Below, piece after piece: positions 31,494 to 53,036 of a DNA stretch of 57,917 nucleotides. The DNA comes from Bigelowiella natans CCMP2755 (taxonomy: Eukaryota; Protista; Cercozoa), in the NCBI GenBank assembly GCA_000320545.1, contig ADNK01000127.1:1-57917 (forward strand). The letters run 5' to 3'. The translations under genes and the position numbers were made by a program. How positions within the stretch are numbered: position 1 is the first letter of the stretch; each line of letters starts with the position of its first letter. Below the pieces are notes generated by a model that did not search any database, was not told where the DNA came from, and saw only the letters and a program-made list of their open reading frames with translations.

Positions 31494-32289
31494 ATCGTTT
31501 GGTCTCGACAGCTGACCACGCTAGAACCCATTGCATGCTACATGCACATGATGCACAGGACAAGCACGTTCTGTCTGAAGCAGTAACTGTCATGATGTCG
31601 CTACACATGCAGCCATCATGACAATCACAAAATGCGTCATGTGCATGTTCGATCATTGCAGTTGCGATCGTTCATCGTGTACTATCCATCTTTCGCTGCA
31701 CTAGCCACATTCAAAGACACCCATGCTGCACGCCTGGATTGCACTGTGCACCATCGATTGTTAATTGCTCAAAGTTGCGCGATGGCAGCGAAGGAAAATG
31801 ACAGTCTAGTAGCAATCTGGAAATGCGTTGTTGCCAGGCGGTGCGTCGAAAATCAATGCTGGAATGGACTCACAGTTCCACACAAAAAAATGCTGTCTTT
31901 ACTTTCCTTCCTTTGTTGTCATCACCATGTGTGTGATGTGTAAGTAATAATAATAATAATTATTATAACCGCCAATGGCGGTATCTGCGATGTGGGCAGA
32001 GCCCACCTGCTCGCAAAGCGATGCGACAGCATTATGCGACTGTATCATTATGCTGTATCATATTACCTTATTATACTCATGTTTCCCAGGGGGTGTTTTC
32101 CGGGGGCGGGGGTTATATATATAAAGTATGTAAGTATTTTAATATATATATATATATATATTAAAAAGTTTGGTTTTTAAAATGCCCCATAAGCCCTCAT
32201 TAGTTATAAAATGAATGAGGTTAGAAAAAAACACTAATTAAAGTGGGGGTCTGAAAAAAAATGAAGAAGCATACGATGTCATTATATGC

Positions 32290-32435
32290 GATGTGCTGTG
32301 CTGTGCGAAGCGATATGCCGTGCTATGTATGTATGTATGTTGCGAAGCGATATGCCGTGCTATGTGCCGTGCCGTGCGAAGCGATTTGCGGTGCTATGTG
32401 CCGTGCTATGCGACTGCTGACTAATATGCGACTGG
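32290..32435 (+). repeat. GC-rich short repeat array (AAGCGATATGCCGTGCTA family), copy 1
   Basis: Units at 32308, 32345 and 32379 (degenerate). 32303-32362 matches 33146-33205 at 59 of 60 nt. Confidence 0.85.
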
Positions 32436-32509
32436 TTTGATAGGCATTGTGTTGTGAGATGCTCATACGAAAAACTTGTTTAAAGAAATGTGTTATATGT
32501 AAGTTAGTT

Positions 32510-33127
32510 ATGAACAAATCTAACGAATTGGTGAAAAAATTATTAATTCTTTCTAAATCTAATGACATTGAGAATGCTATTGAAGAATGGAAATCTCTGA
32601 AAAGTTGTGCGATAGGTAAGCATAAAAAATGTATGATTTCTTATCAACGATATTGTAGAAGTTTCATAAATTTAGAAACTTGTAATGTCATATACCTCAA
32701 AAACAAATATAGTGAATTAAGTGAATATAAAAATGTTGATGTGGAAGCATCTGCCAACTTTTCAACGAACGAAAAACTCTTTTCATATGGTCTTTACAAT
32801 TACCTAAATGAAAAAAAACGAGTTTTACAACAATTAAACAAAACAAAATATTCGCACAGTTTAAGTCTCAAATTAAGAGCTAAAAAATCAATCAGTTTCC
32901 ACGATTTTTTTGAAATTTACAAAAATAAATTAGGCTTTGAAGGATTAATCAAGTTGTTTTTGAAAATTAAAAAAATGAGAAAATTCAAAAACATTTCTAA
33001 AAGACACAAAGAATTATTTGATTTCTGTTATGATTTGTTAAAAAGAAAATACAAAAACAAATATTCCATTTATCTATCATACAATTATCCAGAAAAAATA
33101 ACACAACTAAAAAAGAATGTCGTTTGA
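32510..33127 (+). CDS. Hypothetical viral protein (~205 aa, Lys-rich)
   Basis: ORF with ATG at 32510, preceded by a TGTTTAAAGA motif; flanked by the 60-bp direct repeats. Confidence 0.6.
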   Translation: MNKSNELVKKLLILSKSNDIENAIEEWKSLKSCAIGKHKKCMISYQRYCRSFINLETCNVIYLKNKYSELSEYKNVDVEASANFSTNEKLFSYGLYNYLNEKKRVLQQLNKTKYSHSLSLKLRAKKSISFHDFFEIYKNKLGFEGLIKLFLKIKKMRKFKNISKRHKELFDFCYDLLKRKYKNKYSIYLSYNYPEKITQLKKNVV

Positions 33128-33137
33128 AAAACAGACA

Positions 33138-33290
33138 CATATGCCGTGCGAAGCGATATGCCGTGCTATGTATGTATGTATGTTACGAAGCGATATGCCG
33201 TGCTAATACATATGCGACTAAGCGATATGCCGTGTTAATACACTGCTATTACGAAGCGATATGCCGTGCTAATACACATGCGACTGCTAC
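33138..33290 (+). repeat. GC-rich short repeat array, copy 2 (four 18-nt units, 14-19 nt linkers)
   Basis: AAGCGATATGCCGTG(C/T)TA at 33151, 33188, 33220 and 33254. Confidence 0.85.
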
Positions 33291-33394
33291 AACATACATA
33301 CTTAACAACATATGCTATTAGCAAAAGGATTCCTCTTTTACAAAACATCCAACTATGATTTCTATTTAAAGAATTGTCTCACTATAAGATTAAT

Positions 33395-33592
33395 ATGAGT
33401 AATATTAATCAAGTAAATAAAAGTAGCACAGCAGATAAAATCTATGATGTTGACTATAAACTTAGTGAAATCGTCCTCGTAATAGATGAACTAAAAGCCG
33501 AACTGAATCCTGAATTCTATCGCAAACTAAGAGATAAACTGATGGAAGTCCACATTTGTCTAATGAGCGAAGTTGTAGATGGCTATAAATAA
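33395..33592 (+). CDS. Small hypothetical viral protein (65 aa)
   Basis: ATG 22 nt after TATTTAAAGA (33363-33372); helical-looking sequence. Confidence 0.55.
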   Translation: MSNINQVNKSSTADKIYDVDYKLSEIVLVIDELKAELNPEFYRKLRDKLMEVHICLMSEVVDGYK

Positions 33593-33636
33593 CCATATTT
33601 TCTCCAGACTGGACCCGATGTGTGTGCGGAAGCAGT

Positions 33637-36223
33637 CTACATAGCGATGCGAAGATACTCCCCAGATTTGTAAGGAACATCTTTATCGTTAGCTCCACCA
33701 ACAGCAAACAGTTTGCCATCCCCAATAGCCACTTTTAAACCCCACCTTATGCTCCTCATATCAGGCAGTTTCTTCCACCCCGCTTTCATATTATTCAAAT
33801 CCAGATACTCCCCATTTTTAAGAGTATTACCATCATACCCACCAACAGCAAACAGTTTGCCATCCCCAACGGCCACACCCAAATTACTCCTCTTAGTATT
33901 CATATCAGGCAGTTTCTTCCACCCCGCTTTCATATTCTTCAAATCCAGATACTCTCCAGATTTGTGAGTATTACTACCATCATACCCACCAACAGCAAAC
34001 AGTTTGTCATCCCCAACGGCCACACCCAAAGCATTCCTCTTAGTATTCATATCAGGGAGTTTCTTCCACCCCGCACCCACATTCTTTAAATCCAGATACT
34101 CTCCAGATTTATCACCCCGCCCACCAACAGCAAACAGTTTGCCATCCCCAACGACCACACCCAAACCATATCTCTTAGTATTCATATCAGGGATTTTCGT
34201 CCACCCCGCATTCACATTCTTCAAATCCAGATACTCCCCAGATTTGAGATAATTACTACCATCACCCCCACCAACAGCAAACAGTTTGCCATTCCCAACG
34301 GCCACACCCAAACCATATCTCTTAGTATTCATATCAGGGATTTTCGTCCACCCCGCATTCACATTCTTCAAATCCAGATACTCCCCAGATTTGAGATAAT
34401 TACTACCATCACCCCCACCAACAGCAAACAGTTTGCCATTCCCAACGGCCACACCCAAATACCGCCTCTTAGTATCCATATCAGGGATTTTCGTCCACCC
34501 TTCTTTGAGATAGTCCTCAATCGCCTTCTTCGTTTCCTGCTGTTTCTCCTTGGGCGAACTCAGTCGCGAGATTCGCTCCAGCTTTTCTTCCAGCAACCGG
34601 TTTGCCTCCAACAATTTCCTCTTATCCGCTTCTGCCTTCTGCTTCTCCTCCAACAATTTCCTCTTATCCGCTTCTGCTTTCGCTTCTGCTCTCGCTTCAG
34701 CCTCCCTGACGGCCTCTTCTTTGTTCTTCTCGGCCATCTCCAACTTCTCTTTAAGCTCCTCTGCTTCGTCGTCCAATCCAAGTTGCTTCAAAAACTGGAG
34801 AGAACTCATTTTAGGAGCAATCTTATTAAGCCCTTCGGCCAGTTGACCTGCCTTGGGTCGCTTGGTTCTGTCTGTGTTCAGGCACAATTTTATGGTTTCC
34901 TTGAGAATCGGGTCTGTCTCATCCATCTTATCATACTTCAGCCTCCCGTTCTCTATAGCATCCCTCAAGACATTCTTACTCACCCCTTCAAACGGCATCC
35001 TCATCTCTACGAGGTGATACATCACCAGTCCCAGTCCCCAAATATCCGACTTGTAACCGTATTCACCACTGAACTGTTCGGGAGGCGACCACTCTGGTGT
35101 TCCCCCAGTAGACATTCTCGTCTGCGAGAAGGTGGAGCTCGTGTGGGTAGAGGCCAGACCGAAATCCGCCCATTTCGCCACCCCTCGCTCATCCACTAGC
35201 ACATTCTGGCTTTTTATATCGTGGTGAATGACTCGTTTTTCGTGTAGAAAATGAAGTCCGTTCGCCAATTGCTTAGACCAAATGAGGCGATGCTCGTTCC
35301 CAATTGTATATAAATCATCGTCACCAATCACATCACTCAAGCTTCCGAGAGAGCAGTAGCCCATCACAATAAAGACATTCGGTTCCATCGCCCCTCCAAA
35401 CACCCGAACTACATTCTCGTGCCGAAGGGAAACCGATGTAGTAAGCTCTTTCTTGAAAAGCTCCATTTCCTTCAGGGCAGTTTTGGAGCTATTAAACTCA
35501 ACCTTGGACTCCTTGAAAGCGACTTCCATCCCCTGATACTTGGCCAGATACACGATTCCCATTCCACCTTTTCCTAATTCCTTTGTAATCTTGACATTCT
35601 CTCTGCGAATCACCCACTTGGCCTCTGAAATCCGTTCCCTCTCCAGCAGTCGTTTCAGCTCTACGACATCTTTCTTACTAGCCTCCACCTAAAAAATAAA
35701 TATTATTGTATTGATAGGGACAGGGCTAAAATTAAAATAATCTCACCTCCTTCCTCCGCTGATTGCTCTTGGCCATCTGTTCCAGTCTATCAATCACCTC
35801 GTCGCGGAATTTGCGATGCTCCTCCTCGCAACGATTCAGTTCCACGAGAAGGTCGGTCTGGAGTAGCTCATTGATGCGGAACATCAGTTTCATCAGGCGA
35901 TTAGATTCCGATTTGTTCTCAGACCGTTTCCAAAAGTATTTCTTAAACCAGCCCTGACCTTGGAACGATACGACAAAGTCTCGCACTTCATCAAAACAGT
36001 CCTTCATTTCTTTGAGAACTCCCTGATTCAGCTTCCGATTGTGTAGATTGACCACGGAAGATTTCAAGAGGCTGAAGCACTTCTTCAATTCCTTCACCAT
36101 TCGGTTGTTCTCTTTAGCCTCGTCCAAGACGGAGCATATGTAATTGTAGGCCTCCAAGATTTCTCCCACATTGACCACCATAGTGAGTGAATTGAGATAT
36201 ACGATTTCGTAACTATTCGCCAT
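33637..36223 (-). CDS. MLKL-like 4HB / TKL protein kinase / coiled coil / 6x Kelch protein; join(36223..35747, 35688..33637), ~842 aa
   Basis: A phase-0 GTGAGA...TTTTTTAG intron (35746-35689) fuses ...RRKE to VEASKK.... Kinase motifs GKGGMG, VAFK, HHDIKSQN, DFG, GTPEWSPPE and SDIWGLG. Kelch units W..IPDMNTKR..LGVAVG.GKLFAVGG. The N-terminal helical domain resembles the MLKL N-terminal domain pattern. Confidence 0.82.
33650..34500 (-). repeat. Six ~132-144 bp Kelch-coding tandem units, two essentially identical
   Basis: 34154-34458 shows an exact 144-bp periodicity. Other units differ mainly at loop codons. Confidence 0.9.
35689..35746 (-). other. Predicted 58-nt spliceosomal GT-AG intron inside the virophage
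   Basis: Donor GAG|GTGAGA, AT-rich body with an in-frame stop, acceptor TTTATTTTTTAG|GTG. Splicing joins the two ORFs in frame. Confidence 0.8.
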
Positions 36224-36344
36224 TTCTAAGAGTTTCTTGTGCGGTTTCCCTAAATATCCCTAAAAACCGCCTTCATTTTAATATTCATTCAGTGAAGTGC
36301 GAACTTCAGTTTTCGTTTCCTAATATTTTGCGATTTCAACACCT

Positions 36345-36752
36345 TCAACCCACCCCTACTAAGGTTGCTGTGGGGATACAGACATTCTTCACATAACACC
36401 CTCTGTGTTTGAGATAAGTGGTTTTTATTTTGAATGTATCAAATACTTCTTTATCGTATTGGATATATTTGACTCCATCTGTGAACTTGAAGAAGAAATA
36501 AATGGTTTTGCTCGTATCTACATTCTGTATCTTCTCAATATTGATGTAGGTGGTATCGTATTTATCGCTCCTTATTTTTCTTCCTTTTACTTCTACCAGT
36601 ATCTTTTTGAGTGTATCTTCAAAGTCAAACTTTGAATACCTGCTCTTTGCTATCAATTTTACTTTTAAGAGGTTTTCTATCAGCGGTTTTATCTCTACTT
36701 CGGTCTTATGACCTGCTATATACTCCTCGTTGCTACAGATGTTTTTACTTTT
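36345..36752 (-). CDS. PD-(D/E)XK-type nuclease; frame open to 36752 but lacks an ATG
   Basis: GHKTE...KFDF...ILVEVKGR motif. The upstream sequence ATATATAT-AAA-AGT looks like ATG missing its G. Confidence 0.6.
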   Translation of the reverse strand, partial: KSKNICSNEEYIAGHKTEVEIKPLIENLLKVKLIAKSRYSKFDFEDTLKKILVEVKGRKIRSDKYDTTYINIEKIQNVDTSKTIYFFFKFTDGVKYIQYDKEVFDTFKIKTTYLKHRGCYVKNVCIPTATLVGVG

Positions 36753-36802
36753 ATATATATTAAAAATAATTTATATAATATTTTATTCTAAACGAATATA
36801 AT

Positions 36803-37948
36803 ATGACAAAAGATAAAATACCTTTGTTAGGCAACCTACTACTGCGGAAAGGGTTTTACAGCAAGGAGATAGAGGGCATACTATCCCTGGTCGCATTCAA
36901 TAAGAAGAATGTAGAGGTGTTAGGTAGTTTTCAATTGCGGAGTCAGTTCTATTTCAGTGATATTGACCTCTTTGAAAGCAATGTTAGAATACCAATCAAC
37001 AGAATAGCAGATGGGTTCAAAAAGAAAATAAAGAAGATGCTGAACGACGATAAATACTACATCGGTGATATAAAATGCGGAGTAGCGGAGCATTTGAGGG
37101 TAATAAATGATAATATATACATCCACAACAATAAGGTATATAATTACAACCGAAAGGAGATATTAGAGAGATTACACAGACTGAGAAAGCACCTACCTGA
37201 CTACAAGAAACTAAAAAGACTGATTATCACCAATCCTAATGAGGAGCAGATAAATAAAATAAAACAAATATTTAGGTTTCATATCGTCAGGTGGACCCCA
37301 AGGGAGATATTACAAGGTTATAAGACTTTGATAGATGATAGTAAATACAAATTAGTAGAGGGAATGAAATCTCCTGCTCTATTCAAGTTGGATTTTTACA
37401 AGTATATGAATAATAATAATTTTTTAGAGTTTAGTATCATTTATGATTTACGGAATAGCAAAGGGCAGAAACTAAACAATATTCCATACGATACGAAGCA
37501 AACACTACTTAATGACATTAACAAATATACAACAGAGGGTCAATATTTTAAGGTTTTGAAAAGGAGGTTTTCTTTATTACGATACGAGTATGTTTTTGAG
37601 AAGAAGAAGAGTAATAAGTCCAAGTTAATCGTTCTCTCAAAGATACTAAATAGCAACTTGGGAAATTTATATCAAGTCAAAGCACTCATAGACAATCTAC
37701 TCTTCTTAATAGAGAACTTTAATGATTTAAACAAGGATAGAATAAACAAATCTATTGACGACATCATAGATAAATTATCCTTTGTAAGTTTAAGCAAGTT
37801 TGTGAGAGAGGAAGATGACATCATAGATGATTTAAAAATGATGCTAAAGGGCAAGTCTATCGGTGATATGAGTGGAAACCTGGAGGATATTTATAATACC
37901 ATAGGAGATATTATAAATAAAGAAAGTTATAAGTATATCAAAATATAA
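36803..37948 (+). CDS. Pol-beta superfamily nucleotidyltransferase (Sputnik V21-like)
   Basis: VLGSFQLRSQFYFSDIDL fits hGS-x-DhD, with a candidate third Asp in FKLDF. TCTA motif 12 nt upstream of the ATG. Confidence 0.7.
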   Translation: MTKDKIPLLGNLLLRKGFYSKEIEGILSLVAFNKKNVEVLGSFQLRSQFYFSDIDLFESNVRIPINRIADGFKKKIKKMLNDDKYYIGDIKCGVAEHLRVINDNIYIHNNKVYNYNRKEILERLHRLRKHLPDYKKLKRLIITNPNEEQINKIKQIFRFHIVRWTPREILQGYKTLIDDSKYKLVEGMKSPALFKLDFYKYMNNNNFLEFSIIYDLRNSKGQKLNNIPYDTKQTLLNDINKYTTEGQYFKVLKRRFSLLRYEYVFEKKKSNKSKLIVLSKILNSNLGNLYQVKALIDNLLFLIENFNDLNKDRINKSIDDIIDKLSFVSLSKFVREEDDIIDDLKMMLKGKSIGDMSGNLEDIYNTIGDIINKESYKYIKI

Positions 37949-37990
37949 ATTCAACCCTTTTGAGAGTCTTGAAGGTGTTGAAATTGAAAT
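37949..37990. repeat. 42-bp hybrid palindromic site left of the fibre gene (A-core-B')
   Basis: ATTCAACCCTTT-TGAGAGTCTTG-AAGGTGTTGAAATTGAAAT. Confidence 0.85.
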
Positions 37991-38001
37991 TCACAACAAA
38001 T

Positions 38002-41000
38002 TTAAAACATTCCACTATTATTGAAAAGTGGACTATCAGTTAATTTGTTTATTAATTGATAACCTGGAATTGTTAGGTCAATACCATTGTTATTACCATT
38101 AGAAGGATTATTATTACCACCAAATTGTGTAAGGGTTCTACAAGCAAATTCTCCCTGAACTAGACAATCTCTATATTTATTCCAATTTGCTATGTATGGT
38201 CTTGTTCCATTTTCCACAGGACCTTCCAATCGTATGGATTTGTAATCAGGGTTTGAAATTCCATCATCCCCAAAGTTTGAACCTCTAAAGATGAAATCAT
38301 TGATACGAATTTGAGGGAAATTATATTCACCTGATAATACTATATCCAATTGAGTTCTTAAAATATCTATTTGGTCTTTCAAATAATTATTTTGGGTTTC
38401 TAATTGCTGTAGTTTGTTGGATAATAAAACACCATTTTTCATCTTGATTTCTCCATTAAATGTAGTCTCACCACCTATTTTTACATTGTTCATATGTGTA
38501 TCACCTGTAAAGTGAATACCATCACTATTTGATAAAATACGATTCGTATAATCTGTGCCTGGTTGGTGAACAAAATCAATGTAGCAGGTGCCAGAAACCA
38601 TTTCTATTGAAGAAGCATTATTAATGTCTTTTCCTAAATAAATACCATCACTTTGTGGTTGAGTGGTGCTTCTTAAACCATTCACAAAAATTGAACTTGA
38701 AAACTGATGTTCATTAGGATTAGATGATAAAGTTATTGGATTTAATTTCGTTTCTAGCACAGACACTTGTGTCATAAGTTCGGTTGTTTTTGTTCCCATA
38801 TCTACAATCTTCTTTTCGTATCCAAATAATTCTAACTCGTTGATGGACCAGTAATTAAATTGCTCTATCTTTTTAACAATCCAGCGATAGTGTTTGTAGA
38901 AATTGGTCGTTTGAATGGTTTTATCAATATAAACCCTACCATTCACTGATGTTCCTTGAACTGAAGTTGTTTGAATTGTATTTATGGTTGATAATGGAAC
39001 TTTGCTTTTAAAATCGGTAATGCTAGTAGTTATTGGGAAATGAACAAATGTATCGCCTACTATCCTTTCGGTGGTAAAGCTATAATCCTGGATGTGTTCC
39101 CAAGTTGAATTGTTGTTAGAACCAATCAATACAATTTCCTGTGGTTGACTACTAAAGTCATTCAATTGATTAAATAATATCCACCTGGATATTTGAACTG
39201 GTAGGGTAAAATTCGCTTGGAAATATTCACCGCTTTCTGTAATGCTCGTTCCATTTTTCGTGTAAACTGTTGAGGTGCTACCTATGTAATCATCACCTGA
39301 ATTTTGATAAACATCTGTTCCAAAAGCACTATTAGGGTCAGGTTGCCTCACAATAAGTCGTTCAAATACATCAACATTTTTATTATATAGTATATCAGGA
39401 GTGGAAGGAACATTATTTTGGGTTAAATCCACATAATTACTCAATTCTGCGGTGTATGGTAAATTCTCTAGCAATCCAACCACATTTTTCAGGGTCAGTT
39501 TTTCAAATGTTGATTCATTTCCTGTGATTACCAAACCATTCGTAGTATCATTTGTTATTTTATTTGACAGATTATAATCGCTTAATGTGGTGAGTTTCTT
39601 TTCAAATTTAGATTTGGTGCTAAAGGTTAATCCATTTATGCTATCGCTTGTAATCCCACTTATGCTGTTGTTCGTTCCAGTGGAAGGATTAAATATGCTT
39701 CCATTCAGGTAGAGGTTGGTGAATTTACCATCTACTCCTTCAATCTGTTTCGCTTTTATCTTGGTATCACTTGCTGATGAGAGAATGATAGTTGATGGTA
39801 AAGAGTTTTTATTTATCTGTATGGTTTCATCGTTTAAGGTGTAGGATATGGAAGGACTTTGAGTTGTTGTAAATTCAAGACCTTTAATATTTTCTATAGT
39901 GTTGTGATTCAAACTAAGGTTCCTATTCATATGGACACTTTTCGTATCAACAAATAATGGGGCAGAATTGTTTGTATCGCTAATGAGGTTGTCAGCATTC
40001 GCTGTCGTTGTGTTATTGGTGGTGGTTGTCAGGTTATTTAAATCAAACGATTTATATGTTCCGTCAGTCTGCTTTTGCGATATAGTTTCAACATTTATGC
40101 TCTTGGTTGTGAGATTATTGGTGTTAATTATATTATCACTCTGTAATTTTTTAGAGATGACATCCCCATTTGTTTTTAATTGGATGTTCGTAGTCCCTGT
40201 AGTTGAACCTGTTGGTAATTCATTCACAAGAAAGTCCTTGTTAGTGATATTAATGTTCGTAGGATTGATAGTGAAATGGTCTATTTTCGTGCCTATATTA
40301 TTAATATTGGTTGTATTGCTACCAATGTTGGTTGTATTATTGCTCATAGTAGTGGTATTGTTGGTAATGTTAGCTGTGTTTGTGGCTACATCAGTTTTAA
40401 TGGTGTTTATCCCACTTTCATTCGTAGCTATTCGGTTAGTATTGGAAGTGATATTGCTTGTATTGGTGTTAGTTCTTGTGCTGTTGGACTGAATAGAAAC
40501 ATTATGTCCGTTTATTGAACTCTCGTTGTTAATAATCCTATTGGTATTCTGTGTTATTCTATCCCTGTTGTTAGCAATATCATTATCATTGGAAATTCTT
40601 TGAACCAAGTTCTCGTTGATTTTGGTCGTGTTATTAGCAATGTTGGTGGTATTCTCACTTATCTTTGTCAGTTGGGTCGCAAGATTACCACCATCCAGGT
40701 TAATACTTGTGAAATTCGCAGTATCTCCTGTAATAGTCTTACCAGCATTCAACTGAATGTTCTTACTAAAGTCTATTCTGTCATTCGTCGTAGTTGTTAT
40801 ACCATCTATCCCAGCTGAAATGTTGTTGTTGTTCGTTGTAAAGTTTTGATTGTTTAAGGTAAGTGAAGCAGATTTGATATTATCTTCAACTATTATGTTT
40901 TTCACCTTAATCGTATCTTGAACCTGTATTCCTTTCGCTTCTAATATTCCGTCGTTGTTTACATCCATTATCAATCTACCATCACTTAATCGTGTAAAAT

Positions 41001-41016
41001 AATTTGCCGCACTCAT
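38002..41016 (-). CDS. Putative virion fibre / receptor-binding protein (1004 aa)
   Basis: N-terminal IxxNTxx heptad coiled coil and Thr/Asn-rich beta repeats. Discoidin/F5-8-like segment (IVLIGSNNNSTWEHI..YKHYRWIV..INELELFG). Phage-fibre-like YIDF..DYTNRI motif and a C-terminal coiled coil. Confidence 0.7.
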   Translation of the reverse strand: MSAANYFTRLSDGRLIMDVNNDGILEAKGIQVQDTIKVKNIIVEDNIKSASLTLNNQNFTTNNNNISAGIDGITTTTNDRIDFSKNIQLNAGKTITGDTANFTSINLDGGNLATQLTKISENTTNIANNTTKINENLVQRISNDNDIANNRDRITQNTNRIINNESSINGHNVSIQSNSTRTNTNTSNITSNTNRIATNESGINTIKTDVATNTANITNNTTTMSNNTTNIGSNTTNINNIGTKIDHFTINPTNINITNKDFLVNELPTGSTTGTTNIQLKTNGDVISKKLQSDNIINTNNLTTKSINVETISQKQTDGTYKSFDLNNLTTTTNNTTTANADNLISDTNNSAPLFVDTKSVHMNRNLSLNHNTIENIKGLEFTTTQSPSISYTLNDETIQINKNSLPSTIILSSASDTKIKAKQIEGVDGKFTNLYLNGSIFNPSTGTNNSISGITSDSINGLTFSTKSKFEKKLTTLSDYNLSNKITNDTTNGLVITGNESTFEKLTLKNVVGLLENLPYTAELSNYVDLTQNNVPSTPDILYNKNVDVFERLIVRQPDPNSAFGTDVYQNSGDDYIGSTSTVYTKNGTSITESGEYFQANFTLPVQISRWILFNQLNDFSSQPQEIVLIGSNNNSTWEHIQDYSFTTERIVGDTFVHFPITTSITDFKSKVPLSTINTIQTTSVQGTSVNGRVYIDKTIQTTNFYKHYRWIVKKIEQFNYWSINELELFGYEKKIVDMGTKTTELMTQVSVLETKLNPITLSSNPNEHQFSSSIFVNGLRSTTQPQSDGIYLGKDINNASSIEMVSGTCYIDFVHQPGTDYTNRILSNSDGIHFTGDTHMNNVKIGGETTFNGEIKMKNGVLLSNKLQQLETQNNYLKDQIDILRTQLDIVLSGEYNFPQIRINDFIFRGSNFGDDGISNPDYKSIRLEGPVENGTRPYIANWNKYRDCLVQGEFACRTLTQFGGNNNPSNGNNNGIDLTIPGYQLINKLTDSPLFNNSGMF

Positions 41017-41070
41017 ATATATATTTAATATAGTTTAGATAAAAAAATATTAAATATATATTTATTCCAG

Positions 41071-41112
41071 ATTTCAATTTCAACACCTTTGAGGGTGTTG
41101 AAAGGGTTGAAT
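41071..41112. repeat. 42-bp hybrid palindromic site right of the fibre gene (B-core-A')
   Basis: ATTTCAATTTCAACACCTT-TGAGGGTGTTG-AAAGGGTTGAAT. Both arms are exact reverse complements of the arms at 37949-37990. Confidence 0.85.
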
Positions 41113-41152
41113 ATCAATATTGGATTAAATATATAAATACACATAATTAAAT

Positions 41153-41758
41153 TTAACTTTGAATGAAATTTCCTGATACTTCAAATTGAACTCCTGCCTT
41201 GATTCTCACAACTGGATTAGAAGGGTCGGTTTCATCAATTTCTAAATACTCTTCAATCTTGCTTAATCTTGGTAAAGTGTTGCTTAAATCCGCATTGTGA
41301 GCATCAATTCTTGCCTGGATTTTTGCTTCAATGTCAGTATTAACAGTTGCTTGTGCTGCTTCAACGGCATCTAATCTGGCACTATCGTTTGTATGTAATC
41401 CATCTAATCTGGAAATCTCACCATCCACAAAGGTATTTCTTGTGTTGTGAGCATTTTCTAAGGATAATCTCGCACTGGTTTCAGTAGCGAGTTTGCCTTC
41501 AATGTCAGTTTTATTGTCATCAATTTCTTGCTGTAAATTTGTGATTGCATTTGTAGTAGCAGTATTAGCATTATCTATCTGTGTTTGTAATCCTGCTCTT
41601 GCTGTAGCATTAGCAGTCTCGCTGTCATTATAAGTTGTTATGTGAGCATTTAAAGAATTTAACACAGCGGTCTTCTCTGTATCAATCCTTGTGATGGTCA
41701 AACCTGTAAGTGCTCCATCTATTAATACGGTATTTCTAAAATGTGCAGTGGCGGACAT
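41153..41758 (-). CDS. Coiled-coil fibre-like structural protein (201 aa)
   Basis: Heptad repeats (ETSARLSLE, EISRLDGL) and an upstream TCTA motif. Confidence 0.65.
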   Translation of the reverse strand: MSATAHFRNTVLIDGALTGLTITRIDTEKTAVLNSLNAHITTYNDSETANATARAGLQTQIDNANTATTNAITNLQQEIDDNKTDIEGKLATETSARLSLENAHNTRNTFVDGEISRLDGLHTNDSARLDAVEAAQATVNTDIEAKIQARIDAHNADLSNTLPRLSKIEEYLEIDETDPSNPVVRIKAGVQFEVSGNFIQS

Positions 41759-41797
41759 TATATAACATAGTTTAGAAAATAATTATTTTTAAAGATT

Positions 41798-42127
41798 TTA
41801 TCCCTGCTCTAAGTTGCCTGTGACCTTCAAATCATAAGCGGTCGTTATGCTCTTGTTTGTATGGTCTATCTGTAGTGCTTGTAGTATTTGATTTATTGTA
41901 TCCAGCACATCCGCTTTGAACGATATAATATCGTTCTTTATCGCATTTATTTCGCTCTTTATATCACCTACTTCATTTTGTAGACTTGTGATTTCAGGTG
42001 CTTGTAATTGGTCATTTACTTTAATTTTATCACATTCAATATCATCTAAATCAAAGTCAACATTGCCGACATTAAACTCTACTGCCTTAGTAGTCCTATC
42101 AACATTTAAATAGTTCGCAAAACTCAT
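41798..42127 (-). CDS. Short coiled-coil structural-type protein (109 aa)
   Basis: Heptads ITSLQNEVGDIKSEINAIKNDI. N- and C-terminal motifs are shared with the neighbouring fibre genes. Confidence 0.6.
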   Translation of the reverse strand: MSFANYLNVDRTTKAVEFNVGNVDFDLDDIECDKIKVNDQLQAPEITSLQNEVGDIKSEINAIKNDIISFKADVLDTINQILQALQIDHTNKSITTAYDLKVTGNLEQG

Positions 42128-42215
42128 ATTTATTATAATATACTATATAATTTATTTGAAAAGAAAAAACATTATATTTATTGAGTAATAATTATAATAT
42201 TTTTTTTAATAACAA

Positions 42216-43406
42216 TTAATTCATTTGTATAAGCATACTTTTCTCCACTTTAAAGTGTTTAGGAAGTTCCTCCTCTTTCCATTTCCCAAGTTCATCACTA
42301 ATTTCAAAATGTATTGCTTTGCTTCTTGCTATCACTAAACTATCGGTATGACTATACACAACATCATCTTTGTATTCATTTATCAAACCAACCATATAGG
42401 TTCTCACATAAGAGGTAAGAAATGGTGCTATTCTACAGGCATAGTATTTAAAATACTTCTTTTCTTCTTCAAATTTAGTCAAGGATAATATCGTATATCC
42501 ATCAGGTCCTATTTTGTATGTAGGGGTTTCATTACTTTCTCGGTCATCAATTTCTATCACTTGCTTTGTGTTGACCTTTCTTCTTAATTTGGTTTGGAAT
42601 ATACCCCACAGTTTATTCATTGTTAGTTTTACTAAATCTTGAGATTTTGAATGAGGTAATAATCTGTGAAAGAATTTACCAAAGAGCTTTATGGACTTTA
42701 ATTTCTCTTTGTAATACAGATAATTGGTGTCCAATAGGTTCAATTTCAATCCTAATTCTTTTGCTTGTTTTAGTTCAAGATGAGTATAAATATTGTGTTT
42801 GTTGTATTTAAAAAATATATCATCATCTTTGCTTATTTCAACACAATACAGACCATAATTGAATTTGTAATACTTATCAACTTGTTCCTGTGTTATGGTT
42901 CTTGTCATAGGTGTCCCTAAAGGAATAGTGAAATAATTACTACATAGCACGGATGTGTATTTTTTATTCAAATCCAATTTGATATAGTCTTTGTTTTGAT
43001 ATTCTCCATCCACACTATATCGTATTCCACCTCTACTTGCTTTGTATACCCATTCTTCTTCCATTTCTGTAGTCCTTCCAAACTCTACCTCCTGTGGTCT
43101 AAACTGATTCCAAATGTATAAACTCATCTCTGTATCATCGTAGTTGCTTCGTTTGTAGTCATAACCTGTGATTGCTTTGAACTGATAAAAATCGTTCATT
43201 TTCTTTCCATATTCTTCAATCACATTGCTGTTCTTGGATGGTTTAAGAACATATAAATTATACCCTTCCAGTGTTTTGCTTCGTAATATGTTCTCACCAT
43301 CTACAGTTAAATGGTATTCTTTCTCATCTCTGTTGTAATGGTAGACACCAAAGGTTTTTCGGTTGTAATTGGTAGCACATCTGTATTTCTTTTTTTTCGG
43401 CAACAT
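42216..43406 (-). CDS. Minimal family B DNA polymerase-like protein (396 aa, no recognisable exonuclease domain)
   Basis: SRGG; motif A DLNKKYTS; motif B KLTMNKLWG; motif C YSHTDS; ELGKWK. Confidence 0.78.
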   Translation of the reverse strand: MLPKKKKYRCATNYNRKTFGVYHYNRDEKEYHLTVDGENILRSKTLEGYNLYVLKPSKNSNVIEEYGKKMNDFYQFKAITGYDYKRSNYDDTEMSLYIWNQFRPQEVEFGRTTEMEEEWVYKASRGGIRYSVDGEYQNKDYIKLDLNKKYTSVLCSNYFTIPLGTPMTRTITQEQVDKYYKFNYGLYCVEISKDDDIFFKYNKHNIYTHLELKQAKELGLKLNLLDTNYLYYKEKLKSIKLFGKFFHRLLPHSKSQDLVKLTMNKLWGIFQTKLRRKVNTKQVIEIDDRESNETPTYKIGPDGYTILSLTKFEEEKKYFKYYACRIAPFLTSYVRTYMVGLINEYKDDVVYSHTDSLVIARSKAIHFEISDELGKWKEEELPKHFKVEKSMLIQMN

Positions 43407-43457
43407 ATATATTAATATATATATGAAAGAGTATTTCTTTAAATACTTTTTCGTATA

Positions 43458-43844
43458 TTATTTGAAATAATTAATAAGAACGGATTGTATAAAAAAATCG
43501 TCCCTATGAAGGTCTATACTACCGAACCCTTCCTGTCTGTTGCTTGGGTAGTGAACACCATCACCGAGTGTTGTTATTCTTCCTGATATTGGTATGTTGT
43601 ATTGTAAGATATAAACGACTTGGATTTCTGTATTATCGTTTATTTTCCCTCTGTTTTTCAGTTTGTTTATTTTCCTCGCGATGATTTCATTTGCTGTAGT
43701 AGCATCAGGGAGATACTTTTTACCTTCTTTTTTGAAGTCATACCTTCTTGTGTATAGGAATTTATTCCTTTTCTTTATATTTTGTTTTCTTTCCTTTGAT
43801 TTATTATCATATGCTTGAAACTTTAATCTAACTCTATTACTCAT
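43458..43844 (-). CDS. Hypothetical protein in the replication cluster (128 aa)
   Basis: ORF with its own TATTTAAAGA motif 25 nt upstream. Confidence 0.6.
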   Translation of the reverse strand: MSNRVRLKFQAYDNKSKERKQNIKKRNKFLYTRRYDFKKEGKKYLPDATTANEIIARKINKLKNRGKINDNTEIQVVYILQYNIPISGRITTLGDGVHYPSNRQEGFGSIDLHRDDFFIQSVLINYFK

Positions 43845-43883
43845 ATATTATATATATATAAGAGATAAATCTTTAAATATATA

Positions 43884-45407
43884 CTATACATTTATATCTA
43901 CCTCTTCTTCATCATCTTCTTTCTTTATTAATTTCTTAAAGTAGAACCTTCCTCTCACTTTACCAAAAAGAAATTTGTTTGCTAACATTTGCTTTTTGAA
44001 GTTGCTTTTAGATATGTAAACCGGAGACCAACTTTTAAAGTGTTTATAAATATCGTTGTATAAAATTCTATCTCTAACATCATCAGTAACATCGTAATTC
44101 TCTTCAATGAAATTTAAGGTGTGATTGTTATCGTTTAAATAATCGTTTGTGAATTTCAATACCTTTTCAGGAGGATTTAATTTCTCCATATCTACATGTT
44201 CTAACAATAGTTTGATGTATTCTCTACGATATTCTTTGTTGTTTCTGAACTTATCTTTGAGAGTGTAATCCCTTTTCTTTTCATATTTGTTGTTAGGGTC
44301 AGGTTTTTCTTTGAATTGAAAAGGGAATTGGATGTTTAAGAACCTTCGTTTAATGCTATCATCTACACTATCTAATTTAGGAGCATTATTACATAAGCAG
44401 AAGATGCTAAAATCAGCAAGGAATTCCACAGGAGTATCATACATCTCTCTACAACTAACTGTATCATTATCCGTAATCTTTTTGAGAAAACTTACATTGA
44501 AAGATAGTTCTTTATCGCCTTCATTTTCTTCAGGTTCATTGACGACAACCAATCGCTTATCCATACATTTATATAAATCACTATTAGGGGCATTCGCTTT
44601 GTATTTAGTTGTTAGGAACTGAGAAGAAACTATATTGCAATATTTAGAAGTTGCTACTTGATGAAGAGCAGTTAAAACACCTTTACCGTTCCCTCCACTG
44701 CCTAAAAACATAATTAGCAATCCAAACTTATTGTAAAAGAGACTGTTTGCTAATAATTTTAGCAGAAACAGAGCATCTTGTTGTGTTTCTTGTATGCCGA
44801 AAATGAAATCCAATATGTCCTTTCTCACCTCTTGTTTAATCGGTCTTCTGGGTTTAAGTTTGAATTTGATATAATTAGAAATAAAGTCTTTCTTTTCTAT
44901 ATCTCTATATTTCTTTGTTTCAAGGTCATACACACAATCTTTAAATGCTAATAGGTTCTTATTTTTATCTATTTTGTTCAATATGTCCTCATCATTGTAG
45001 TATTTCATTAGTTTAGCGATGATGTTCTTACTAAAGGCATTGCTTCCTACCTTTCTAAAATTCTTTAAATATTCTCCTCTATATCTCTTATCCTTTCCAA
45101 TCTTAGCAAACTCTGTTTTTAGGACATGCTGTAAGCATGTGGATATGTGGTTGTTTAGAAAGACCGGTGCCTCCTTTTTGTAGGATTTCACAATATTGTT
45201 CTTATCGTAGAAGAACCAAATCTTATGTTCCTGATTGTATATGTAAGCATCTTTGTTTAAATCATAAAATAGTTTTGCCCAACATTCGTCACTGTAAGTA
45301 GGCAACACATCGGTAAAAAATCTGTAATCAACAGTGATGACAGGTTTCCCATCAGGCACACTGATGCTGTTCGCATAGTCCAGAATAGCAGGATTAATAT
45401 TATCCAT
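43884..45407 (-). CDS. D5-like superfamily 3 helicase (D5_N + SF3 + C-terminal winged-helix-like region), no obvious primase domain
   Basis: NLLAFKDCVYDL (D5_N), Walker A GSGGNGKG, Walker B VVVNEPE, motif C CLCNN, Arg finger SIKRRF. Confidence 0.9.
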   Translation of the reverse strand: MDNINPAILDYANSISVPDGKPVITVDYRFFTDVLPTYSDECWAKLFYDLNKDAYIYNQEHKIWFFYDKNNIVKSYKKEAPVFLNNHISTCLQHVLKTEFAKIGKDKRYRGEYLKNFRKVGSNAFSKNIIAKLMKYYNDEDILNKIDKNKNLLAFKDCVYDLETKKYRDIEKKDFISNYIKFKLKPRRPIKQEVRKDILDFIFGIQETQQDALFLLKLLANSLFYNKFGLLIMFLGSGGNGKGVLTALHQVATSKYCNIVSSQFLTTKYKANAPNSDLYKCMDKRLVVVNEPEENEGDKELSFNVSFLKKITDNDTVSCREMYDTPVEFLADFSIFCLCNNAPKLDSVDDSIKRRFLNIQFPFQFKEKPDPNNKYEKKRDYTLKDKFRNNKEYRREYIKLLLEHVDMEKLNPPEKVLKFTNDYLNDNNHTLNFIEENYDVTDDVRDRILYNDIYKHFKSWSPVYISKSNFKKQMLANKFLFGKVRGRFYFKKLIKKEDDEEEVDINV

Positions 45408-45470
45408 ATATATATTATATTATATATTTTTATCTTTAAATAATAACGATTATTTCTAACCTTAATAATC

Positions 45471-45707
45471 TTATAACAAGTTACTAAAGGCAGTCAGCAA
45501 CTCTTTGTCAAGCAGTTTTAATTGTAAGTATATTTTTTTGTGCTTTCTAAACTTCTCAAGTTTCTCTTGAGTATCAATAATGCCTGAATACTTATGCTTA
45601 TAGTTTGCTAATACTCGCCTTTTGTTTAATTTGTCCTTATTGCGACGATAATATAGTTTTTGGTGGCGGAACATGTCTGTTTTCGCTATAGTATTTTTAT
45701 TGCTCAT
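45471..45707 (-). CDS. Small basic hypothetical protein (78 aa)
   Basis: YYRRNKDKLN basic helix; TATTTAAAGA motif upstream. Confidence 0.6.
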   Translation of the reverse strand: MSNKNTIAKTDMFRHQKLYYRRNKDKLNKRRVLANYKHKYSGIIDTQEKLEKFRKHKKIYLQLKLLDKELLTAFSNLL

Positions 45708-45866
45708 TAATATGATATATATATTAATATATCTTTAAATAGCATTCATATATAAGCGACCGCGAAATGCAAGTGCAGAGAGGCAGAAACAAGAGACTTT
45801 ATTAGCATATAACATTTGCAAAAAGCAGTCCTTGTCCATTTGTCAGTCGTCCTAATAAAAAGTAAA

Positions 45867-46727
45867 TCAAGTCGCATCTCCTGATACATATTCTACATCA
45901 TCTTCACTTTCATCACCTACTGCATCTTCTGGTATATATTCAAAATCATCTTCACTCTCATCACCTACCGCGAAGCATATTTTTTGATGCTTTTCTTCCT
46001 TTTCGCCTTCTTCAAACCTTGAAGCAAGGTTCTGCTTCACCAAAGGAGACCCAGTGAATGGGTTAGAAGCAGAAACATCCATCGTCTCAGTCTTGGAATT
46101 ACTACCAGGAAGTTTAAGTTTCGCATTCTCAAACTTGATAGGCGACTTGACTTTGTCAACATACAGAAGTTTCCGTTCCTCGTCAACTCGCACGATTTTC
46201 TTCGCGGATTTCACATATCCCTTGTCAGGATTCAGCAAATTCTTGTATATGATTTTATCTCCCTCTTTAAATGCAACTCCTTCAGCACTTGTTTTGGGTA
46301 GATGTTTCACAGCAGAACTCTTAAGTCTCGCATTCTCAAATTTAATCGGAGACTTAATATTCTCCACGAAAAGCAGTTTCCTCTCCTCATCCACACGAAC
46401 GACCTTTTTCGCGGTTTTTACCATACCCTTTTGAGGACTCACCAAGTTTTGGTAAATAACCTTATCGCCAACCTTGAACTCAACATTCCCATCGCTGTTC
46501 AAACGATTTGAAGGCAAACTTGGCACACACAGCAAATCTTCCATAGGGATACACCTATCAATGCTTTTGAACCTTGTAGTCGTGTAATCGCTCTTCTCAT
46601 ACGGAGTTTTCCAAGTGACATAGTCCTCCTTCTTGTCTACCACACCGTGTGCTTCCAGTACCCTTGTTTCACCATTTTTTTTGGTGAAAATAACAACAGC
46701 AGGGAATTGCTTGGGGAGGAGGGACAT
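45867..46727 (-). CDS. Cargo protein with a duplicated SH3/KOW-like domain and acidic tail
   Basis: Two ~57-aa repeats, FKVGDKVIY..VRVDEERKLLFV..KSPIKFENA and FKEGDKIIY..; VGDESEDD occurs twice. Likely ATG at 46727. Confidence 0.7.
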   Translation of the reverse strand: MSLLPKQFPAVVIFTKKNGETRVLEAHGVVDKKEDYVTWKTPYEKSDYTTTRFKSIDRCIPMEDLLCVPSLPSNRLNSDGNVEFKVGDKVIYQNLVSPQKGMVKTAKKVVRVDEERKLLFVENIKSPIKFENARLKSSAVKHLPKTSAEGVAFKEGDKIIYKNLLNPDKGYVKSAKKIVRVDEERKLLYVDKVKSPIKFENAKLKLPGSNSKTETMDVSASNPFTGSPLVKQNLASRFEEGEKEEKHQKICFAVGDESEDDFEYIPEDAVGDESEDDVEYVSGDAT

Positions 46728-46953
46728 AGTTGATTTATTAAGGCAACTGGCGACATAGGTCACCTAATTTGCTCCCCTACGACAAGGAATTGTGATAAAA
46801 AAAATAAATAAATGCCCTCGTAAAAGATGTGAGGAAAATGGCAGGATAGTAAGATAATACGACAAGCAGGGCGAAAACAAATCGCCTTCAATTAATACCA
46901 AGGGGTGTTATTAATAGGATTTTGGAAATACCCAATTGCAATGAGTCCAAATC

Positions 46954-47060
46954 TATTTTTAACCCATTGGAATGGGTTATTTTTAGACCCACTCCAATGG
47001 GAGTGGGTTATTTTTAGACCACTCCAATGGGAGTGGGTTATTTTTAGACCACTCCCATTG
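46954..47060. repeat. Tandem ~30-bp hairpin repeats (TATTTTTAGACCCACTCCAATGGGAGTGGGT)
   Basis: Two full and two partial units, each an internal near-palindrome. Confidence 0.85.
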
Positions 47061-47128
47061 AGATTGCCTTTTCGCTTCGGTAAATTCACATAATTTAAAT
47101 TCTAAAAATAGAAATATTTAAGTATACG

Positions 47129-47240
47129 GTTTCATACTCTAAAATGAAACCCCAAAAAGTTTCATACTCTAAAATGAAACCCTAAAAAGTTTCATACTCT
47201 AAAATGAAACCTCAAAAAGTTACATACTCTAAAATGAAAC
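47129..47240. repeat. Four tandem 30-bp units containing the GTTTCAT-N8-ATGAAAC inverted repeat
   Basis: GTTTCATACTCTAAAATGAAAC at 47129, 47159, 47189 and 47219 (last has one mismatch). Confidence 0.9.
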
Positions 47241-47426
47241 TACCATACGGTTATATTTTCGTGTTGCACCTTTCATTTTGTGGTGTTGCACGATTTTTAG
47301 TGAAGATAAACCCCCTGCAATTTTTAAATACTTTTATTATTTCCACAAGGGGCAAAAATGTTCTCAAAATGCCCTACAATTTTAATATGTTCATCAAAAG
47401 GCGACATACGGACCTTCATCCTTGCA

Positions 47427-48967
47427 ATGGCGGAAACACCACTATTTAGACTACTTGCTCAAAGTCAGAGACTCGGGTCTTGGGACGAATTGTGGAATTC
47501 TGCTCCAGTAGAAAAACCTGGATTTAAACATTACGAGAAATACTTGGAAAAGCGAGTAAAATGGTTGAGCGATTTTAATGAAATCCTAATGGATGAAAAT
47601 GAGGAAGCATTTAAAATTGGTAGTGATGATTGGAATGCTAATATCTCCATAATCGTTTCGGCACTGGAAAAGGACAAGGGAAACAAGAAACTACTCAAAT
47701 ATATGCGAGATGTCGCACATATGTATACAAATCCACAACAAATACGAGACCTGCTTAATGGTGTTGGACCGCCTCCAGCAGACCCTTACTACGACAACCT
47801 CAGGGAGCAGTTCGCAGAGCAATACAAAGTGCCTATCCCAGTTGATAAAAGCAAAATATTGGGTGGTCTTAAGGAGTCTGCAGACAAGACCTGTGATAAG
47901 AAAAGCAAGAAGAATAAGTCTACAGACAAGACCTGTGATGAGAAAAGCAAGAAGAATAAGGTCTTGACCCTGACTTTGGGTGTGACAAAACTTACGAAGG
48001 GAGGAACGATTGACAAGCGGTATCAAACTCCTCAGGATACAAGGTAATAATATATATTTATATTTATTTTATTTTAATTTGTAATTTCAACCCATTAGAG
48101 GGGGAGGAGATACATAGTTACTAATTATTTAATTATTCTTTCTTTAGCACTCCTCTTAACCTTACGAAAAGACTTCAGGGAGGTGCTGACAACGGCAACC
48201 AGATGCAGATGCTTTGTGATGCTACGAGCAATCTTAGGGTCAACAACGGCGATGCAAAGATGACATCCATTTGCAAAAAATTGAATTTTCAAATGGAAAT
48301 CTGTGACCCAAATGCATCATTACAATTACAGGTCAAGCAAATAGAGAACTACAAACCTCAAAACTTTTCACAACCTGCACGAATTGCATCAAATGGGGTT
48401 GCTTCACAATGGTATGCTAACTTGGAAAGTGTCAAAAAGAAGATTAATCAGGATGCAATCAACATAGAACAAATCCGTAAGCATTCTTGTAAAATATATG
48501 GTCAAGAAATGCAGAAACTTAACAAAATGCAGAAAGGCAGTATGCAATGTTTCCAAAGAGATGCACAATTACAAGCGATGTGGAATTATATGGTGACAAC
48601 TTTCAAATCAAAGTTAGCGGAAATGGAAGAAGCATTGGAAGACATTGACAAAACTATGAAGTGGTTGTTGCCTAAAATGAAAGAGGATGAAATCAAAACG
48701 GCGACAAGAAATGTAATGGAAGTTGTGGAAAGGGAGATGGGTTATGCAAAGCAATACAGAATTGGTTTCACTACTTATGTGACACAAAATGGAAAAAGAT
48801 ATTGGTTTCAAGTTAATAGAAACCGAGAATGGAAAGCAGTCACACTGGATGATTTGAGAAATGTGCATCAAAAGGCATTTTGGGGCAAAAGTAGGTTTGA
48901 TGATGAAGAAAAAGAGGATGATGTAGATTATGACCAACTGATGGCAAGTGAACTTAAAGCAGAATAA
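47427..48967 (+). CDS. Two-exon cargo protein, join(47427..48043, 48148..48967), ~478 aa, unknown function
   Basis: A phase-2 intron AG|GTAATA...TCTTTAG|C (104 nt, AT-rich) joins ORFs 47358-48047 and 48203-48967 in frame through STPLNLTKRLQGG. Confidence 0.7.
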
Positions 48968-49010
48968 TAAAACACTTGTTGCTTTCGCATATATCAGCAT
49001 CCGCATATGT

Positions 49011-49190
49011 CAGCACATAGCATAGCACAGCACATAGCACGGCACAGCATATAGCACGGCACAGCATATAGCACATAGCACAGCACATAGCACGGCACAG
49101 CATATAGCACGGCACAGCATATAGCACATAGCACAGCACATAGCACGGCACAGCATATAGCACATAGCACAGCACATAGCAGTCGCAGTA
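49011..49190 (-). repeat. CATAGCACGGCACAG-type array, reverse complement of the left-end TGCCGTGCTA family
   Basis: Repeated TAGCACGGCA/TAGCACAGCA units between convergent genes. Ends in GCAGTCGCA, the reverse complement of TGCGACTGC seen in the left arrays. Confidence 0.85.
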
Positions 49191-49206
49191 TTCGCTTTGC
49201 TTCACA

Positions 49207-49521: not shown

Positions 49522-49584
49522 ATATACAATAGAGTTAGATAATTATATTATTTAAAGAAATAATGACTAACAAAAGTATGAGAA

Positions 49585-50409: not shown

Positions 50410-50411
50410 TT

Positions 50412-50449
50412 ATTTTAATAACATATTTGATTAAATATTTTATTAAAAT
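50412..50449. terminator. AT-rich hairpin between the convergent HNH and ATPase genes
   Basis: ATTTTAATAA/TTATTAAAAT outer stem plus inner ATATTT/AAATAT pairing. Confidence 0.55.
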
Positions 50450-51325: not shown

Positions 51326-51351
51326 TTAGATATTATTTTTTATAGTAAATA

Positions 51352-53016: not shown

Positions 53017-53036
53017 ATATATATATGTTTAGATAA

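Follow-up and report, generated by a model that had tools for sequence, protein, structure and literature searches.

Introduction

Blanc et al. are said to have reported in PNAS in 2015 that the provirophages of Bigelowiella natans are transcribed. That this protist carries provirophages has long been known (PMC8547959, PMC5127031), and PMC5127031 summarises the 2015 work on their transcription. Here we analyse a 57,917-nt stretch of DNA from B. natans CCMP2755 (GenBank assembly GCA_000320545.1, contig ADNK01000127.1, forward strand), called the window throughout, in which host DNA gives way to an integrated, multi-copy, virophage-like element. Inside this element, on the minus strand, lies a gene for a kinase with a Kelch propeller (36223..33637), and one intron of 58 nt splits it into two exons. 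We find that this intron is spliced out of RNA. Very probably this is a host-type, and likely host-derived, gene of a multi-copy integrated virophage, one whose expression likely relies on host RNA polymerase II (Pol II) and nuclear splicing, not on the factory of a giant virus.

Several other integrated viruses bear on this locus. In punuivirus, an endogenous giant virus of Chlamydomonas, 61 of 506 genes are intron-bearing (bioRxiv 10.64898/2026.10.09.758095). The genes of the EMALEs, integrated virophages of Cafeteria, contain no introns (PMC8547959), and one large survey adopted as its working rule that endogenous viruses are without introns (PMC10120064). Nematode Maverick/Polinton elements are reported to carry cellular cargo genes (bioRxiv 10.1101/2022.07.12.499685).

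Splicing of the kinase gene

As read from the sequence, the gene has the following parts:

35747..36223, minus strand: exon 1; ATG at 36223, 159 codons, helical N-terminal domain
35689..35746, minus strand: intron; 58 nt, GT-AG, phase 0, GC 0.24, joint present in RNA
33637..35688, minus strand: exon 2; 683 codons plus stop, encoding linker, kinase, coiled coil and six Kelch blades, then the stop
about 34840-35589, minus strand: protein kinase part of exon 2; Pfam Pkinase, 3.8e-44
about 34504-34791, minus strand: coiled coil of exon 2; lysine/glutamate-rich
about 33640-34503, minus strand: six Kelch blades of exon 2; Pfam Kelch_1, 3.4e-42; a 147-nt DNA repeat family

On the gene strand, exon 1 closes with gag, the intron runs from GTGAGA to TTTATTTTTTAG, with a pyrimidine run before its AG, and exon 2 opens with gtg. 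The intron is in phase 0, because exon 1 holds 159 whole codons. Left in place, it would extend the reading frame by V-R-L-F to an in-frame TAA, four codons in, and so yield a 163-aa open reading frame (ORF) at 35732..36223.

Contigs of six sequencing runs were placed on the window: one DNA run (X1) and five RNA runs (X4, X12, X15, X16, X17), the latter comprising two culture runs and three marine metatranscriptomes. The RNA runs belong to four coded studies; the metatranscriptome studies date from the same year and may be one campaign. The DNA run and the culture RNA runs come from the same organism. Contigs were accepted at a likeness of at least 90% (X1, X4, X15, X16) and of at least 97% (X1, X4, X12, X17).

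A joint that omits exactly 58 bases (35688^35747) is found in contigs of all five RNA runs, with shorter sides of 69 to 255 letters, and is not in the DNA run at either cut-off (0 of 1). It is listed as 35685 to 35744 with ends CT..AC and 'cut +3', which equals 35688^35747 and reads GT..AG on the gene strand. At the 90% cut-off the joint occurs in X15 and X16 (with a shorter side of 255 in each) and in X4 (depth 30.3, shorter side 69); at 97% it occurs in X4, X12 (depth 59.6, side 70) and X17 (depth 15.5, side 115). The evidence for the junction is far beyond chance. A preliminary description of the locus, made from the letters alone, had claimed a 58-nt phase-0 GT-AG intron with an in-frame stop and had named 35747^35688 as the junction by which it could be checked in RNA: every detail of the intron is present in the sequence, and the junction is now in hand.

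The DNA run provides a control. Its contigs match exactly over 26001-31955, introns included, and lack every one of the 11 GT..AG joints seen in this region in X4 and X12; because these host-intron joints are missing from it, X1 behaves as genomic DNA. Some of the RNA contigs lie very close to the window copy. Over its 450 nt, the spliced X17 contig departs from the window at a single letter and in one compensated 1-nt indel pair; over exon 1 the X4 contig (35914-36132) has no other letters and the X12 contig (35914-36118) one. The spliced contigs of X15 (764 nt) and X16 (1157 nt) are 11 and 25 letters off, respectively. Among the matches listed there is no unspliced RNA contig of the window copy; contigs drop minor forms and cannot measure intron retention.

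Homologous proteins place the exon junction at the same point. Two intron-free homologues are colinear across it. In P0011, a 1091-aa protein from a DNA contig, exon 1 residues 19-150 align to residues 4-134 (41%, 5e-36) and exon 2 residues 1-312 to residues 144-458 (54%, 7e-112). There is no indel at the junction, because nine residues remain on each side. A transcript protein of Lotharella globosa, another chlorarachniophyte, P0131 (993 aa), gives the same two-exon alignment with a 2-residue difference at the junction. On their DNA contigs, of 47.5 and 17.4 kb, P0011 and P0126 (a member of its cluster) are each encoded by one uninterrupted ORF. With GT and AG ends and a pyrimidine run, exact removal in RNA and restoration of a colinear frame, the intron has the features of a U2-type GT-AG spliceosomal intron.

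The intron is common to paralogues and was overlooked in the annotation of one of them. A B. natans paralogue model, jgi/Bigna1/144140 (P0118), is 85% identical to exon 1 and terminates ...KEVRPF; the model therefore reads into the same intron and stops. Another public model, P0003, begins in the middle of the kinase domain, and the reference annotation seems to have split the kinase-Kelch gene family. One paralogue lacks the intron: over window positions 35661-35761, a contig present in X1 (depth 73, about single copy) and in X4 swaps 99 bases, the intron and 41 exon bases, for 27 others, and is a genomic paralogue without an intron. Inspection by eye matches its junction to use of the AG that follows 11 nt downstream, and this would point to a processed (retro-) copy with a shifted frame.

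The gene lies within an integrated virophage

The element and its recognisable virophage genes are:

31956..57917, no strand: integrated multi-copy AT-rich virophage-like element; left end about 31929-31956, right end beyond the window
43884..45407, minus strand: D5-type primase-helicase; Pfam D5_N 4.1e-13, DUF5906 1.9e-07
55172..56461, plus strand: virophage penton (minor capsid) protein; Pfam V18-19, 2.9e-17
56492..57916, plus strand: Sputnik-type major capsid protein, cut by the window end; Pfam Sputnik_MCP_1st 1.6e-37, MCP_V20_C 2.9e-26

Best protein matches name the host as B. natans. Bases 1-31955 have a GC content of 0.41-0.56 and, from 26001 at least, match X1 exactly as single-copy DNA (contig depths 69-83) with 11 spliced host introns. 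The exact X1 contig ends at 31955; beyond it the summed depth is 350-930, equivalent to about 5-12 copies, and GC falls from 0.43-0.56 to 0.28-0.37. Integration in the host chromosome is thus marked by the passage from single-copy spliced host gene(s) up to 31955 to multi-copy AT-rich DNA. The AT-rich part also encodes a lipase-like hydrolase (Pfam), and ORF 50450-51178 has weak P-loop ATPase matches (8.6e-05 and weaker); no maturation protease family is among the Pfam matches in the part of the element inside the window. Judged by these predicted genes, the AT-rich part is an integrated Sputnik-type virophage.

The surroundings of the kinase gene belong to this element:

33396..33592, plus strand: small AT-rich ORF, convergent with the kinase gene; TTTAAAG at -31; 44 nt between the two stop codons
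32511..33127, plus strand: AT-rich ORF, GC 0.25, between repeat arrays; TTTAAAG at -32
36803..37948, plus strand: ORF at the kinase gene's other flank; carries the element motif, no Pfam match
36224..36344, minus strand: upstream region of the kinase gene; no TCTAAM or TTTAAAK, part of multi-copy sequence

The gene lies 1.7 kb inside the left end of the element, and both flanks consist of multi-copy AT-rich ORFs with element motifs. Over exon 1 the summed depth of X1 is 209-429, but it reaches 866 at 36221-36421, so that multi-copy sequence restarts at the ATG. On the other side, RNA contigs of X4, X15 and X16 span from the small ORF into the Kelch 3' end (from 33318, 33472 and 33476 to 33669/33670); the junction between the two also exists in natural populations, because a culture run and two metatranscriptomes cross it. 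As far as the window allows, the kinase gene is part of the element.

Promoter-like motifs distinguish many of the element's genes. Of 21 AT-rich ORFs, 15 have TCTAAM or TTTAAAK upstream of the ATG, against 5-7% of background 60-nt windows. TCTAAM precedes seven ORFs (six at -16 to -23, one at -31) and TTTAAAK ten (at -30 to -37), with two ORFs having both. The kinase gene has neither, as first described, but the same is true of 6 of the 21 other element ORFs.

Arrays of a 17-19-nt unit (GCGAAGCGATATGCCGTGC-like) at 32283-32411 and 33130-33285 form direct repeats that bracket ORF 32511-33127, and they recur inverted at 49004-49179, 16.7 kb away inside the element. These arrays could serve as an origin or in regulation, or could be terminal repeats, now internal, that belong to a nested element. 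A 103-codon open frame without an ATG (36345-36656, minus strand), AT-rich, multi-copy and with no Pfam match, separates the kinase gene from ORF 36803-37948; it may be what is left of an element gene that was cut short by the arrival of the cargo.

Host-type character of the gene

The composition of the kinase gene is that of host DNA. Its GC content is 0.46, against 0.25-0.42 for the 21 element ORFs. GC content at third codon positions (GC3) is 0.63 in exon 1 and 0.52 in exon 2, compared with 0.56 in the neighbouring host gene and 0.18-0.51 in the element ORFs, 19 of 21 of which lie below 0.42 (the highest three are 0.43, 0.41 and 0.51). Copy number also sets it apart from its flanks: the X1 depth of the kinase part is 268 at the 97% cut-off and 318-429 at the 90% cut-off, against about 74 for a single copy, or about 4-6 near-identical copies and fewer than the flanks.

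Its relatives point the same way. The nearest kinases are a B. natans paralogue (89%), P0011 (54%) and the L. globosa protein (44%), all others being at most 35% identical, and the combination of N-terminal domain and kinase is otherwise found only in P0011, B. natans paralogues and L. globosa. The Kelch half finds its best protein matches, at 57-79% identity, in B. natans proteins whose N-terminal modules are different ones (SAM or a GAAD-like stretch, for example). Scans of viral contigs with ORF 36803-37948, exon 1 and P0011 returned no relatives, and exon 1 found none in a scan of metagenome contigs or in a word search against longer proteins. Twelve metagenome loci matched by P0011 were set aside, since they match only its Sel1 part or its generic kinase part.

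The preliminary description had called this a virophage gene. It does lie inside the integrated element, but its GC, its GC3 and its nearest relatives (the B. natans Kelch family and an L. globosa transcript) are of host type, and on these sequence features it would be better named a host-type cargo gene.

In the B. natans family to which it belongs (P0003-P0012), the six-blade Kelch propellers are near-identical and end in ...GEYLRIAM; coiled coils connect them to varied N-terminal modules (SAM, a GAAD-like stretch, the bundle-kinase). This is domain shuffling of a sort known from immune receptor families.

The encoded protein

The kinase motifs are intact in the translation (the GxGxxG glycine loop, the VAFK lysine, HHDIKSQN and DFG), and the kinase is predicted to be catalytically active. 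In the Kelch part, the Kelch_1 match covers 5 stretches and six GW(T/K)K(I/L)PDM units can be counted in the translation, as befits a Kelch beta-propeller.

For the domain encoded by exon 1, an AlphaFold (AF2) model built from a 7-row alignment (pLDDT 77.3) has helices at residues 19-35, 41-62, 67-87 and 101-158, and predicts a four-helix bundle whose long last helix (101-158) reaches the exon junction. Foldseek with this model places the MLKL executioner domain at ranks 1-4, 6, 10, 31 and 35 (probability 0.97, TM 0.48/0.52, best E only 0.26); with a single-sequence model it returned no MLKL rows (best E 0.16). VIA-align gives NRG1.1 CC-R a Z of 9.5 (root-mean-square deviation 3.3, 103 aligned), MLKL 8.3 and 8.0, and Rx-CC 7.7. 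An unrelated row, GCP4, stands at 9.6, and by the tool's own warning the arrangement of the helices is enough to lift a helical model to such Z. Independently, the ESM Atlas gives the MLKL_N/MCAfunc/RPW8 clusters as the closest to exon 1 (0.93), which has 185 of 256 features in common with them. A sequence search of the PDB with exon 1 gave nothing below E 0.6. These lines converge, though none is strong, and the modelled domain is fairly likely to be an MLKL-like four-helix bundle.

In MLKL, a brace sits between the four-helix bundle and the pseudokinase. The intron here falls in the long helix between bundle and kinase. The kinase domain of MLKL is a pseudokinase, a property that the present protein is predicted not to share, as its kinase keeps the catalytic motifs.

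Other features of the element

Over the core region 37340-45343, X12 and X17 have next to no RNA contigs and X4 a depth of 0-5, although missing cover is no evidence of silence. A weak joint omitting 193 bases at 43329-43523 (CT..AC, or GT..AG on the minus strand) connects ORF 43458-43844 to ORF 42216-43406; X4 is the one run that has it, the shorter side being 23 letters, and it could be an artefact or reflect the cryptic splicing of a transcript from the virophage. Three ORFs within 45344-48967 (45867-46763, 47358-48047 and 48203-48967) have a GC content of 0.37-0.42, above the rest of the element, and RNA contigs of X4 and X12 cover 45344-46000 at summed depths of 47 and 67. The region may form a second island of host expression. 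Tandem repeats of 30 nt, which contain palindromes, occur in two sets (46963-47066 and 47099-47270) in the intergenic stretch between divergent ORFs.

Discussion

Spliceosomal splicing is a nuclear process. Because the message of the kinase gene is spliced, its transcription and processing are best explained by host machinery in the nucleus. The preliminary description had already proposed such expression, and with the splicing confirmed it is the simplest reading of the data. It had gone on to suggest that only the integrated copy might yield the full protein. Transcription in a giant-virus factory would need read-through, because the gene has no viral promoter motif. Expression from the provirus, in cultures and at sea, would then not depend on the presence of a giant virus. 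Spliced RNA is found in culture runs and in metatranscriptomes alike, in contigs that cannot compare expression levels. As to origin, the simplest history is that an ancestor of the provirophage family, or of part of it, would have captured a host gene at the DNA level, intron included.

Other histories can be written for the same locus. The gene might be an ordinary host gene outside any virophage genome, either one on a small piece of host DNA that two viral or repeat insertions, independent of each other, enclose, or one inserted in a dead provirophage and spread only by segmental duplication. Such an account would sit well with the host-like GC, GC3, relatives and intron, with gene copies (about 4-6) that are fewer than flank copies (about 8-12), and with a right end of the element that is not in the window. 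We nevertheless consider it unlikely, because the GC-rich stretch is exactly one gene long, with only 44 nt between its stop and that of a motif-bearing AT-rich ORF and multi-copy sequence from its ATG; because the repeat arrays and both motifs are common to the left flank and the capsid-side part; and because the paralogue model P0118 has a similar in-frame stretch before its ATG. Alternatively, the N-terminal domain and kinase could together be an old viral gene, of a virophage or a giant virus, that gained its intron and host-like composition after endogenisation, with no capture from the host. The intron is indeed short and AT-rich like the element, unlike all 11 neighbouring host introns, and the lineage of P0011 and P0126 is unbroken, with no intron at this place. 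Yet scans of the viral contig collection with exon 1 and P0011 gave no relative, the module is present in a Lotharella globosa transcript, GC3 equals that of the host gene, and B. natans proteins that differ in their N-terminal domains match the Kelch half at 57-79% identity, which together make a viral ancestry improbable. There is, finally, a slight chance that the window copy is silent and that all of the spliced RNA comes from paralogues elsewhere in the genome. Several copies do exist at 90-99% identity, and the metatranscriptome contigs are 1-2% off the window; on the other side, the X4 and X12 contigs (0 and 1 other letters) and the spliced X17 contig (1 in 450 nt) fit the window copy as well as any.

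Several observations weigh against our preferred interpretation, that of a captured host gene expressed by host machinery from a provirophage and perhaps serving in defence. The contigs identify neither the copy of origin among near-identical copies nor the strand, start, end or intron retention of the transcript. At 35945 and 36044, X1 has only G and C, where A and T stand in the window as in the RNA runs X4, X12 and X17; at these positions X1 is without exactly this copy. (The provirophage-borne copies apparently differ between the sources of the DNA and RNA runs, despite an identical host flank.) The element is seen only to the window end, and its right end lies outside. At the borders of the GC-rich insert there is no target-site duplication or inverted repeat; one 10-nt direct and one 8-nt inverted match were taken as chance. 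The intron, at 58 nt and GC 0.24, does not resemble its neighbours (92-254 nt, GC 0.33-0.50 in 11 of 11 introns, a local sample only), and given this mismatch it may not have arrived with the host gene; it may have been gained later, inside the AT-rich element. For the protein, the fold scores of exon 1 are below the level that the tools treat as decisive for helical bundles, and Pfam gives exon 1 no match, with no MLKL_N or RPW8 even at E <= 10. The 4HB-like domain first ascribed to exon 1 is supported, if weakly: AF2 predicts the bundle, and Foldseek, VIA-align and the ESM Atlas lean towards MLKL/RPW8, but Pfam and PDB sequence matches are lacking and the scores are not decisive. A defence-related role, in the infection response of the host or of the provirophage, is deduced solely from domain order, and we regard it as the best guess, though less likely than not.

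If the protein does act in this way, it would work as a chain of sensor, switch and effector, in which the Kelch propeller binds a ligand, the competent kinase is the switch and the MLKL/RPW8-like bundle is the output. The layout is one of cell-death or immune signalling, and a part in the response to infection, whether the host's or the provirophage's, would therefore be its most likely function. It is tempting to go further and imagine the intron as a compartment sensor, or kill switch, in a provirophage-borne death effector. In the nucleus, splicing would give a full-length, self-restrained bundle-kinase-Kelch protein; in the cytoplasmic factory, with no spliceosome, translation would stop four codons into the intron and release a free 163-aa MLKL-like bundle to kill the cell or the factory. 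This hypothetical scheme is very much a long shot; were it true, it would amount to an abortive-infection switch carried by a virophage.

The splicing of a gene within a provirophage is demonstrated here both for cultures and for the sea, so provirophages can carry host-style genes, which intron-blind annotation splits; the paralogue model P0118 stops inside the intron. Surveys of integrated virophages and polinton-like viruses usually use prokaryote-style gene callers, and the intron-free assumption is stated in PMC10120064. The locus also carries over to virophages the layout in two programmes described for an endogenous giant virus, with host-regulated genes beside virus-promoter genes. For the old idea of provirophages as agents of host defence it suggests a candidate effector, whose domain order is cell-death-like. 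In the literature searched we found no report of a spliced gene in a virophage, the 2015 provirophage paper and its supplements being outside that scope, and no paper mentioning both Bigelowiella and MLKL.

The protein itself shares the order of its parts with MLKL and with RPW8/NRG1 CC-R proteins, namely an N-terminal helical bundle, a long connecting helix and a kinase fold; it differs from MLKL in that its kinase keeps the catalytic motifs and in the addition of a coiled coil and a six-blade Kelch propeller. By analogy only, the gene recalls those of bacterial lysogenic conversion and prophage abortive infection, where an integrated virus likewise carries a host-expressed gene unrelated to virion production. 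The closest comparison is with the provirophages already described from B. natans, which are, like this one, integrated in the same host, multi-copy and equipped with Sputnik-type capsid genes; here the strongly covered transcript is that of a host-type spliced cargo gene. The EMALEs are alike as integrated virophages of a marine protist with core morphogenesis genes, and unlike in having no introns, where this element has one spliced gene. Nematode Mavericks are also integrating virus-like elements of the same wider supergroup that carry cargo, in an animal host and with other cargo. In punuivirus, the preprint describes host-like latency genes with spliceosomal introns, active without virus production, beside structural genes with a conserved AT-rich viral promoter and promoter-driven virulence genes (bioRxiv 10.64898/2026.10.09.758095), and this is the likeness that we find here. 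That system is a giant virus with 61 intron-bearing genes, whereas ours is a virophage with one seen in the window, known from sequence and contigs. A host-regulated, intron-bearing gene of an endogenous virus thus has a known precedent in an endogenous giant virus; here such a gene lies in a virophage and its product has a cell-death-like order of domains.

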